Of a DNA stretch of 46,821 nucleotides, positions 18,001 to 21,000 are shown in pieces. The stretch is from a virus (lineage: Duplodnaviria; Heunggongvirae; Uroviricota; Caudoviricetes): the IMG/VR virus record IMGVR_UViG_2718217787_000008, one strand, 5' to 3'. A program made the position numbers. The stretch's first letter is position 1. Each line of letters opens with the position of its first letter.

Positions 18001-21000
18001 GAATCAAGGAAAGATACTACCACTTTCGTCATCGGCATTTTTAAATGAAAACTGTTTACTTAGTCAACAATAACGGAAAGAAATTATGACATTTCTGAAC
18101 CAGTTAATGCTGTACTTCTGTACGGTGGTCTGTGTGCTGTATCTCCTTTCGGGTGGGTACAGGGCCATGCGTGACTTCTGGCGCAGACAGATTGACAAAA
18201 GGGCCGCTGAGAAAATCAGCGCCGGTCAGTCAGCCGGAAGCAAACCCGAAGAGCCGCTCATTTAGCGGCAACTTTCTTAATCACACCTTTCGACGAGAAA
18301 ATCCCATGTCAGAAATTACATCCCTGGTCACTGCAGAGGCAGTGAAGGAAGTCCTGCGCTCTGAAGAAGTCCTGAGCGCACTGAAACAAAAACTTAGCCA
18401 TAACCTGGAAGCGCGTCTTGATGCAGAAGTGGATGCCATTCTGGATGAGCTGCTTGGTGTACAGGCAGAGCCACCGACTGAAGCGGGAGATACCACCGCA
18501 GAGAGCGGTGAAGTTCAGCCTGAATCACCGGTCGCCGATGCGACTGAACCTCAACCCGAATCGGTCATGATGCTGTAACGGGGAGTCAGGGCCATCAGTA
18601 AACAGCTGCTGGCCTTTTTCATGTTGTGAGCTTCCGGATAACGGGAGACGGGGTATGTACCAGATGGAAAAAATCACAACGGGTGTGTCATACACCACGT
18701 CAGCGGTGGGGACGGGATACTGGTTACTGCAGCTGCTGGACAAAGTCTCTCCGTCCCAGTGGGTGGCGATAGGTGTGCTGGGGAGTCTGCTGTTTGGCCT
18801 GCTGACGTATCTGACTAACCTGTATTTCAAAATTAAAGAGGACCGTCGCAAGGCTGCCCGGGGAGATTAGGTGATGAACCATGAAGAAATGAATCAGCGC
18901 TTCAGTCGTCTGGAAAATGAAATTGCTGAACTGAATAAAAAACTGTCGACGCTGATGCCTTCTGAAGATGAAAAAAAACGCCGCGATGAGCAGTTTGCTG
19001 CGTTTGACGATTATTGTCGGAAAGTGATGAGCAGAAATCTCTCAGAGTGTTTCAGTATTCATAATGATAATTTCAGTGAGCTGGAATGGGAGTGTAACCG
19101 GCCATCCTTTGTTGTATCCGGTGATGCTGGGAAAATAACCATCTCAGAAAATGGGAAAGTAACACCGCCATCGCACCAGCATAGTGAGGAGCTCATTGAA
19201 TTTGCCATTGATTACCTGAAGAACAATAAAAAGCAGGGGCTGATGAAGTGCATTGGTCGTTGCATGGGATATCTGCAGATAGCTGCTGAGATTGAAGCGC
19301 TGGCCAGTGGTGCTGACAAGGATGCAGTTGTGCGGGAGGCTCTTCTTCGTGAGTTTGACAACCCGCCCTTTAAAAAAGTGCCGGCTTACTGGTTTCATCC
19401 AGGACTGACTTATCTTAAAGGACGTATATAAGCTGGCTCGTTATCTGTTGCCGATAAATCCTGATAAATATCCATGAACACCAAAATCAAATACGGCCTG
19501 TCGGCTGCCGTTCTGGCGCTGATTGCCGCTGGTGCGCCTGCGCCTGACATTCTCGACCAGTTTCTGGATGAAAAGGAAGGTAACCACACCACGGCATACC
19601 GTGATGGTGCGGGTATCTGGACCATCTGCCGAGGTGCCATCATGGTGGATGGTAAGCCTGTGATTCCTGGCATGAAGCTGTCGAAGGAAAAATGCGACCG
19701 GGTTACCGCCATTGAGCGTGATAAGGCGCTGGCATGGGTGGAGAAAAACATCAAAGTGCCACTGACCGAACCCCAGAAAGCGGGTATTGCGTCATTCTGT
19801 CCTTACAACATTGGCCCAGGTAAGTGTTTCCCGTCGACGTTTTATAAACGAATTAATGCAGGTGATCGCAGGGGAGCGTGTGAGGCGATTCGCTGGTGGA
19901 TTAAGGACGGTGGGCGTGATTGCCGCACACGTTCAAATAACTGCTACGGACAGGTTATTCGTCGTGACCAGGAAAGCGCATTAGCTTGTTGGGGGATAGA
20001 TCAGTGAGAAGAGTAACCGCGATTATTTACGCTCTGGTTATCTGCATCATCGTCTGTCTGTTATGGGCTGTTAATCATTACCGCGATAACGCCATCACCT
20101 ACAAAGCGCAGCGCGATAAAAAAGCCAGAGAGCTGGAACAGGCGAATGCCACCATTACTGACATGCAGGTGCGCCAGCGTGATGTTGCTGCGCTCGATGC
20201 AAAATACTCGAAGGAATTAGCCGATGCGAGAGCTGAAAATGAAACTCTGCGTGCTGATGTTGCCGCTGGTCGTAAGCGCCTGCGGATCAACGCCACCTGC
20301 CACGGTACCGTACGTGAAGCCACCGGCACCTCCGGCGTGGATAATGCAACCGGCCCCCGACTGGCAGACACCGCTGAACGGGATTATTTCATCCTCAGAG
20401 AACGGTTGATGATGATGCAGAAGCAGCTGGAAGGGGCGCAGGAATATATCCGCACTCAGTGTATTAACTAGTATTTTTGTTATCCGGAGAATGCATGAAG
20501 AAATTACTGGTAACCGTAAAGCCTTTTCAGGGAACAATTCCGTTCCGTGTTTTGCAGCGTGGTCGTGTTCTTGTTGAAGGTTCGTTCAGTGGTAAATGTA
20601 CGCAATTACACTCCCGGACCTTTCAGGTGAATGCCACGAATGAAGAGCTAACCGTTGAGTGTACGATGAATGCCGCTAAATGCCGCATGGTATCCGCTGC
20701 ATTACAGCCAGTGTGTTGAGCGACCTTATTATCCATGCGCGGTATTGTCGCCGTATTCCCGTATTAACAGAGACCGCAGCCCGACAGGGAGACTCCTCTG
20801 CGCGAGTGTGCGGGGATAATCAAAAACGATACACACCGGGGTTTACCGCGTTAACGGAGCGCGGCGTTGTCCCCTCATGGTCGCTGGTCCGGTGCGATGG
20901 TGGAAGAAACCGGACTACATTACAAATGATAACCATTATCATTTTTCGGGTCCTCCTGGTGTGGTGGGCCTGAACACGGGGCGGGCGGCGCGGAAAAAGG

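Follow-up and report, generated by a model that had tools for sequence, protein, structure and literature searches.

A DUF1327-less Variant of the Long YdfR Family between the Holin and Endolysin Genes of a Stx-Phage-like Prophage

The closest described counterpart of the gene considered here is ydfR of the Qin prophage of Escherichia coli K-12, the product of which (PF07041, DUF1327) is encoded after a P21-type holin and before a lysozyme, and has a function that is likewise essentially unknown. According to a 2026 study, residues 1–72 of K-12 YdfR bind the N-terminal (catalytic) half of RNase E, YdfR co-purifies RNA, and the Qin ydfR cluster shows almost no RNA-seq reads in standard growth (PMC13232886). 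Here, we analyze an open reading frame (ORF) that occupies the same slot, between the holin gene S and the endolysin gene R, in the IMG/VR virus record IMGVR_UViG_2718217787_000008 (Caudoviricetes), the whole 46,821-nucleotide stretch of which is called the window below and provides all coordinates unless another locus is named. The studied protein belongs to the same protein cluster as YdfR, phrog_1085, and a close homologue of it is fused to YdfR in 296-amino-acid (aa) "YdfR family" proteins; however, the DUF1327 sequence of YdfR does not overlap with the studied protein (profile positions 1–79 versus 117–296), and the region reported to bind RNase E is absent from it.

Similarly close are the long YdfR proteins of Shiga toxin (Stx) phages (phage 86 gp05, 268 aa; Stx2_95 BCI50300, 329 aa; and P0035, 296 aa), which are encoded in the same S–R slot and have a C-terminal domain (C-domain) that is 84–96% identical to that of the studied protein, but which differ in carrying an N-terminal DUF1327 domain and other linkers; in phage 86 and Stx2_12E129, the gene is moreover followed by a converging 104-aa ORF (phrog_1853) that the window lacks. 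Salmonella proteins of 190–330 aa (P0166, P0125 and P0212) share the C-domain motifs GRCMGLLQVAAEIEA, DNPPFK and W..PG..YLK.R and are encoded next to a holin in the late operon, but are only 30–45% identical, lie upstream of the holin, accompany three holin families and have no Pfam assignment. Cargo genes between R and Rz (ant of phage 86 and 933W-type phages, KilA-N, and N6/N4 methyltransferase) are likewise lysis-unrelated inserts that are co-transcribed late, although they use another junction and come from unrelated families for which some activity is at least predicted. T4 RIII and P1 LydB are small cytoplasmic proteins, encoded with the lysis genes, that tune holin triggering; the analogy is one of logic. 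The studied protein has no match to PHROG lysis families, PDB or BFVD, and where its gene lies with respect to the holin varies across genera. Finally, morons in the sense of Hendrix are autonomous prophage cargo genes of distinct base composition, with their own promoter and terminator, that are expressed in the lysogen.

An earlier sequence-only reading of the window had described an ORF inserted between holin and endolysin. The ORF is indeed there, as an intact + strand frame flanked by S and R genes identified through Pfam, and it is a genuine conserved gene. Judged by its sequence relationships, it is best regarded as an architectural variant, lacking DUF1327, of a holin-adjacent type of prophage gene that is already known, albeit uncharacterised. 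At a rough probability of 50%, we read it as a late-operon accessory gene outside the lysis machinery, being the short DUF1327-less form of a modular "long YdfR" family (phrog_1085), a family that habitually fills the slot between P21-type pinholin and signal-anchor-release (SAR) endolysin in Escherichia lambdoid prophages.

Domain Architecture and Conservation of the Studied Gene

The studied protein corresponds to the zipper + C-domain half of long "YdfR family" members and lacks DUF1327, because the two halves cover complementary positions of phrog_1085, are fused in P0035, and have no mutual similarity. Its match to phrog_1085 (E 5e-112) is confined to positions 117–296 of 296, the N-terminal 116 positions being absent, and it does not have the full DUF1327 + zipper + C-domain architecture. 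K-12 YdfR is 81% identical to residues 1–74 of P0035, and the remainder of this 296-aa protein is 81–83% identical to the studied protein, while no BLASTP alignment and no shared similarity were obtained between K-12 YdfR and the studied protein themselves. PF07041 (DUF1327) is not matched by the studied protein at E ≤ 0.1; the long homologues match it at 1e-34 to 1e-44. The zipper + C-domain unit is fused behind the DUF1327 (YdfR) domain in 296–329-aa paralogues, each half also occurs on its own, in different prophages, and the zipper segment is found fused not only to DUF1327 but also to an alternative C-domain (L054) and to a phrog_2571 domain (P0135). The 213-aa homologues have ~28 extra residues in the linker. 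We note that the window itself encodes a 74-aa phrog_2571 ORF after Rz (20495–20719), which shares 49% identity with P0135 over the first 61 residues of the latter, and that the zipper part of P0135 shows 67% identity to residues 12–60 of the studied protein.

The sequence-only reading had assigned the protein to no recognised family. This stands for curated families, as Pfam and NCBIfam searches of the studied protein gave chance-level matches only, and Pfam scans of 70 family members gave no match for the C-domain; the protein does, however, belong to phrog_1085. The catalogues label the protein "hypothetical protein" (RefSeq) and "Phage protein" (UniRef), as well as phrog_1085; all six of its PHROG matches are of "unknown function", with none in the "lysis" category. 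PADLOC at E ≤ 0.1 gave only chance-level hits, and no match, for the studied protein, a Salmonella homologue and the converging ORFs described below. In literature searches covering ydfR, DUF1327 and the genes of the S–R junction, only the RNase E interaction study turned up as relevant work; none of the papers found, surveys of Stx phages included, discusses the studied gene.

Structural analysis was based on an AlphaFold2 (AF2) model from a 70-sequence alignment, with a mean predicted local distance difference test (pLDDT) score of 81.9; a run on a shallow E. coli-only alignment reached 56.6, and the resulting model was not used. The N-terminal coiled-coil-like stretch noticed earlier is reproduced as predicted helices at residues 3–27 and 31–59, with an a/d heptad formed by F10, L13, I17, L20, L24 and L27. 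These are followed by a disordered linker (pLDDT <50 at residues 54–71) and by the C-domain (residues 78–185, ~108 aa), which is predicted at pLDDT 85–95 to contain four helices and three short strands, and carries the motifs H103, G128-R-C-M-G-Y-L-Q135, AAEIEA, D-N-P-P-F-K167 and W173..PG..YLK.RI. Foldseek searches against BFVD and PDB returned nothing at E ≤ 0.001, and a profile search of PDB sequences nothing better than E 0.1, the hits being coiled-coil noise only. The protein is hydrophilic and acidic (grand average of hydropathy, GRAVY, −0.65; isoelectric point 5.8), the several cysteines mentioned earlier number five, and there is no transmembrane segment (maximum Kyte–Doolittle value over a 19-residue window, 0.95). 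A membrane antiholin was thus considered and rejected, since the protein lacks such a segment and the AF2 model is a soluble helical hairpin followed by an alpha/beta domain.

Exactly this 185-aa sequence is present on 944 public contigs, relatives are detected by megablast in 810 of 5426 complete E. coli genomes (~15%), and the protein clusters contain 169 homologues of the studied protein. The ORF is intact at ~75 of 81 related Escherichia loci (all but about six), and the 185-aa form is the commonest length class in this sample, with 41 loci, followed by those of 296 aa (25), 329 aa (7) and 209 aa (2). The ratio of nonsynonymous to synonymous substitution rates (dN/dS, Nei–Gojobori, against the window gene) is 0.07–0.40 for residues 71–185, indicating purifying selection on the C-domain, and 0.2–0.8 for the mosaic N-terminal part. 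Frameshifted copies of the family are found at L047, L059, L040 and L136–138. A mis-called ORF without conservation, against which the earlier reading had itself cautioned, is rejected on the strength of the conservation and the purifying selection, and an antisense 84-aa ORF at 19144–19398 was also discarded, being conserved merely as the complement of the studied gene. A one-genome-per-species bacterial scan yielded only three loci, all in Escherichia or Shigella, and a hidden Markov model search of 1.84 billion representative proteins only 41 matches, all of them family fragments or Salmonella relatives. We also observe that the Prokaryotic Genome Annotation Pipeline (PGAP) labels long-form ORFs that are intact at 296 aa as partial "YdfR family" pseudogenes of 112 aa (for example, L092 2053–2943 of E. 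coli NR329), leaving the conserved C-domain without annotation in many complete genomes.

Occupancy of the S–R Junction in Related Prophages

The S-to-R gap was surveyed at 73 loci with the most similar holins, drawn from IMG/VR and phage records, with the following gap lengths in nucleotides (nt):

≤16 nt, 31 loci: direct S–R
~399 nt, 17 loci: 114-aa DUF1327-only YdfR
~600 nt, 7 loci: 185-aa type
~856 nt, 3 loci: DUF1327 + zipper, plus reverse ORF
931 nt, 5 loci: 296-aa DUF1327 + zipper + C-domain
~1030 nt, 6 loci: 329-aa long forms
~1097 nt, 4 loci: 213-aa type + converging ORF
1263–1316 nt, 4 loci: other combinations

An insert is present at 42 of these 73 closest-holin loci (~58%), among them 17 of YdfR only, 7 of the 185-aa type and 11 or more long fusions, with S and R adjoining directly at the other 31. 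In an even sample of GenBank phage records, S and R are direct neighbors in ~36 of the 50 having both genes, including 933W and most Stx2a phages, and the rest (~28%) have inserts, while K-12 Qin has the gene order essQ-ydfR-rrrQ. Taken together, the gap survey, the GenBank sample and Qin indicate that the S–R junction is a regularly filled, hypervariable slot. The earlier statement that S is normally followed directly by R thus holds only for the 933W-like Stx phages, the majority of those sequenced, and not for the loci with the closest holins; similarly, the studied gene does lie between S and R, but is not an unusual insert, given the order in Qin and how often the slot is filled. Furthermore, S21 holins that are 94–100% identical are found both with and without the studied gene.

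Other occupants of this slot include a 263-aa protein (L054 372–1163, +) in which DUF1327 + zipper is joined to an unrelated C-terminal domain, and which is accompanied by a 233-aa reverse-strand ORF (L045 4761–5462, −). A Pfam scan of the other slot occupants, covering this alternative C-domain, the 233-aa reverse ORF and the small converging ORFs, found DUF1327 only. A converging ORF of 104–105 aa (phrog_1853) follows homologues of the studied gene at L003 2858–3172 (−), L002 3157–3471 (−), L087 4599–4916 (−) and L178 4309–4626 (−), its carriers being phage 86 and Stx2_12E129, along with some of the Salmonella prophages; mutual identity is 44–77% among the L003, L002 and L087 copies (L178 lies outside the alignment), and the window has no such ORF. 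The R–Rz junction of related cassettes also holds inserts, at L003 4109–4678, L174 5001–5945 and L176 5891–6421 (anti-repressor Ant, N6/N4 DNA methyltransferase and KilA-N protein), and cargo insertion within these lysis cassettes is therefore common.

Distant homologues, at 30–45% identity, occur only in Salmonella enterica, where a divergent DUF1327-like N-domain, the coiled coil and the C-domain motifs are kept. In ten Salmonella-type contexts, the homologue is found in the late operon, past Q and cargo (HicAB, ParE and ArtA-like toxin genes), 100–800 bp upstream of the holin, with S and R adjacent to each other, and the partner holin belongs to PF04971, PF16080 or PF05106. A converging ORF of 86–122 aa often follows the Salmonella homologue, in some cases homologous to phage 86 gp06 (phrog_1853), and other Salmonella loci have unrelated small converging ORFs at the same place. 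The family adjoins a holin gene in all of the ~90 Escherichia and 10 Salmonella-type contexts examined, with the gene order and the holin family varying.

Locus Layout, Start Codon and Expression Signals

The late region of the window contains, in order, a Q-type antiterminator, two tRNA-Arg genes, a NanS-p esterase, DUF1378, DUF826, the P21-type holin, the studied ORF, the endolysin and Rz/Rz1, with the following features:

16003–17949: nanS-p (NanS-p esterase), in the late region of the window
18655–18870, +: P21-type class II holin (pinholin) S; PF04971, E 8.5e-33; phrog_20/9876 "holin"; PGAP "class II holin family protein"
18860–18865, +: Shine–Dalgarno GGGGAG in the 3′ end of S, from the sequence and a 13-locus junction comparison; local RNA unstructured
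18874–19431, +: studied gene, 185 codons + stop; phrog_1085 positions 117–296 matched
18880–19050, +: N-terminal helical hairpin / leucine zipper (residues 3–27 and 31–59), from the AF2 model and alignments
19051–19104, +: variable low-confidence linker (residues 60–77), from AF2 pLDDT and alignment
19105–19428, +: conserved C-terminal alpha/beta domain (residues 78–185), three short strands and four helices
19432–19473, no strand: AT-rich unstructured spacer of 42 nt; no terminator, and no Shine–Dalgarno before R
19474–20007, +: SAR-type endolysin R, T4-lysozyme-like; PF00959, E 3.6e-24; phrog_7 "endolysin"
20004–20471, +: Rz i-spanin, its start overlapping the R stop; PF03245, E 1.4e-50; PGAP "lysis protein"
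20224–20409: Rz1, embedded in Rz, from the ORF list

The frame from GTG 18871 to 19431 (+ strand) for which a 186-aa product had been given is open, but ATG 18874 is the better start, giving a product of 185 aa with the stop at 19431, because it lies 8 nt past the GGGGAG in the end of S, is the start used by PGAP (WP_001015164.1, "hypothetical protein"), and is kept in homologues where the GTG is not. The gene had been placed right at the holin stop and ~40 bp short of the endolysin, in agreement with the 3 nt found between the S stop and ATG 18874 and the 42 nt between the ORF stop and the R start. The window holin retains the dual-start motif M1-Y-Q-M4, and the N-terminus of R is hydrophobic and Gly/Ala-rich, like those of SAR endolysins.

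Neither a sigma-70-like promoter nor an intrinsic-terminator-like site is found on the + strand between S and R, and both the spacer between the studied gene and R and the start region of the gene are predicted to be unstructured. The co-transcription with the lysis genes proposed earlier is therefore a reasonable inference and, as judged from these signals, almost certain. The comparison of the 13 junctions shows that the GGGGAG embedded in S serves whatever gene comes next: in direct S–R cassettes, it is used by R. In the window, in contrast, R starts without a Shine–Dalgarno sequence, behind a conserved leader that is AT-rich and unstructured (…gataaatcctgataaatatccATG; 19432–19476), and all insert-bearing cassettes examined (including L013, L042, L001–L003 and L054) share a near-identical AT-rich R leader together with the R allele MN[AT]KI[KR]Y. 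This is also the allele of the window R, and in this comparison it was always linked to a filled S–R slot. The guanine–cytosine (GC) content of the studied gene is 44.4% (43.5% at third codon positions, GC3), compared to 53.2% for S, 53.0% for R and 50.8% for the window. As a separate observation, a hairpin (GGCCAUCAG...CUGCUGGCC) followed by UUUUU is present at 18588–18621, just upstream of the holin, and resembles an intrinsic terminator within the late operon; its minimum free energy is −16.5 kcal/mol, with a z-score of only −1.1, and it was not flagged by the consensus scan.

The region matches a yecE prophage of E. coli O157 strain Al Ain at 100% identity and the sorbitol-fermenting O157 strain 493/89 at 99.9%. 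The stxAB site is empty, with only 530 bp between the tRNA-Arg pair (15306–15382 and 15396–15472) and nanS-p at 16003, and no stx-sized ORF is found between these genes (15306–16003); the window is therefore a yecE prophage that resembles Stx phages but lacks stx. In the Al Ain record (L004, NZ_CP043539, 26822–37101, corresponding to the structural-gene region of the window), the annotation gives many of the head and tail genes as frameshifted pseudogenes, reflecting either prophage decay or an assembly error, and IS1203 adjoins the integrase at yecE.

Candidate Functions

We favor accessory cargo over a component of the lysis machinery because near-identical holins work without the gene, because its partner holins are mutually unrelated, because its position relative to the holin flips between genera, because its composition is foreign to its neighbors, and because the R–Rz junction of relatives also holds unrelated cargo. 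As such, the protein would appear only upon induction, as a product of the Q-antiterminated pR′ transcript, and would accumulate in the cytoplasm alongside the lysis proteins, with the gene presumably dispensable for lysis itself. The zipper may mediate oligomerisation and the C-domain may be a binding or effector module, while the fusion with DUF1327 suggests that this half of the family acts in the same pathway as YdfR. The protein could thus serve a late function that is directed at the host and touches RNA turnover, possibly by zipper pairing with the DUF1327-zipper proteins of co-resident prophages.

Several points weigh against this interpretation. The link to RNase E is weak, since it comes from a single study of the DUF1327 domain, which the studied protein lacks, and gene fusion is weak support for a shared pathway. 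Holin adjacency in every context examined, irrespective of genus (two), gene order (two) and holin family (three), would also fit a role in lysis. Moreover, "binding or effector module" is a description and not a mechanism, because no homologue with a known function could be detected for the C-domain, and both the oligomerisation and the pairing with YdfR-zipper proteins of other prophages are speculation.

The best surviving alternative, which we nevertheless consider unlikely, is that the protein modulates lysis timing, either as a cytoplasmic regulator of the pinholin or of SAR-endolysin release, with a logic like that of the T4 antiholin RIII, or through the gene serving as a spacer that uncouples R translation from that of S. 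The placement of the gene within the cassette, its use of the Shine–Dalgarno sequence embedded in S, and its invariable proximity to a holin are all consistent with such a role, as is the AT-rich R leader of insert-bearing cassettes, which implies that R is expressed differently there than in direct S–R cassettes. However, the shift in position with respect to S between genera does not fit this role, and three unrelated holin families (PF04971, PF16080 and PF05106) argue against a specific holin-binding partner. In addition, near-identical S21 holins function without the gene in 933W-type phages, the window S retains its own dual-start antiholin motif, and the studied protein has neither a membrane segment nor similarity to lysis PHROGs.

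Distinctly less probable is an extension of the proposed YdfR pathway, in which the C-domain would be an undescribed fold and would provide the effector function in a prophage system of two parts held together by the zipper: docking on the catalytic part of RNase E would fall to the DUF1327 half, while the C-domain half, either fused to it or supplied in trans from another prophage of a polylysogen, would alter late-mRNA turnover or lysis timing.

It is very unlikely that the gene is a moron expressed in the lysogen, that is, a gene for defence, superinfection exclusion or host fitness that the repressed prophage expresses. The base composition is as expected for a moron (44.4% GC versus ~53% in S and R), and the gene occupies a hypervariable cargo slot with domain shuffling, is paired in some relatives with the converging phrog_1853 ORF, and has Salmonella counterparts that neighbor toxin–antitoxin genes and ArtA-like toxins. 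Against this, no promoter or terminator flanks the gene, which begins 3 nt past the S stop, PADLOC gave no match, the converging partner is absent from the window, and the Qin ydfR cluster is nearly devoid of RNA-seq reads in standard growth (PMC13232886). A classical moron is rejected on the first of these grounds, such that, of the "late-expressed moron" put forward in the sequence-only reading, the late-operon cargo is retained and the moron proper is not.

Finally, a functionless remnant, namely a 5′-truncated leftover of a long YdfR-family gene hitch-hiking in the lysis cassette, is highly improbable, as, despite the missing DUF1327 domain, the frameshifted copies and the higher dN/dS of the N-terminal part, the 185-aa form starts at a conserved ATG of its own with a Shine–Dalgarno sequence and is the commonest length class, and its C-domain is under purifying selection and is kept to ~30–45% identity in Salmonella with invariant motifs.

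Returning to the accessory-cargo interpretation, the S–R junction is, like R–Rz, a regular cargo slot, and lysis cassettes cannot safely be assumed to consist of S, R and Rz only. The modular family, together with the RNase E report on its YdfR half, provides a concrete, testable lead. If the two-part system were borne out, the holin-adjacent "YdfR-family" genes would form a new class of regulators, acting in late-phase host takeover or as a lysis clock, in the lambdoid phages of Escherichia and Salmonella. The studied gene sits in the part of a Stx-type prophage that controls toxin release and lysis; if it alters lysis timing or late-mRNA stability, Stx release in enterohaemorrhagic E. coli could be influenced, and otherwise it would be ordinary prophage cargo.

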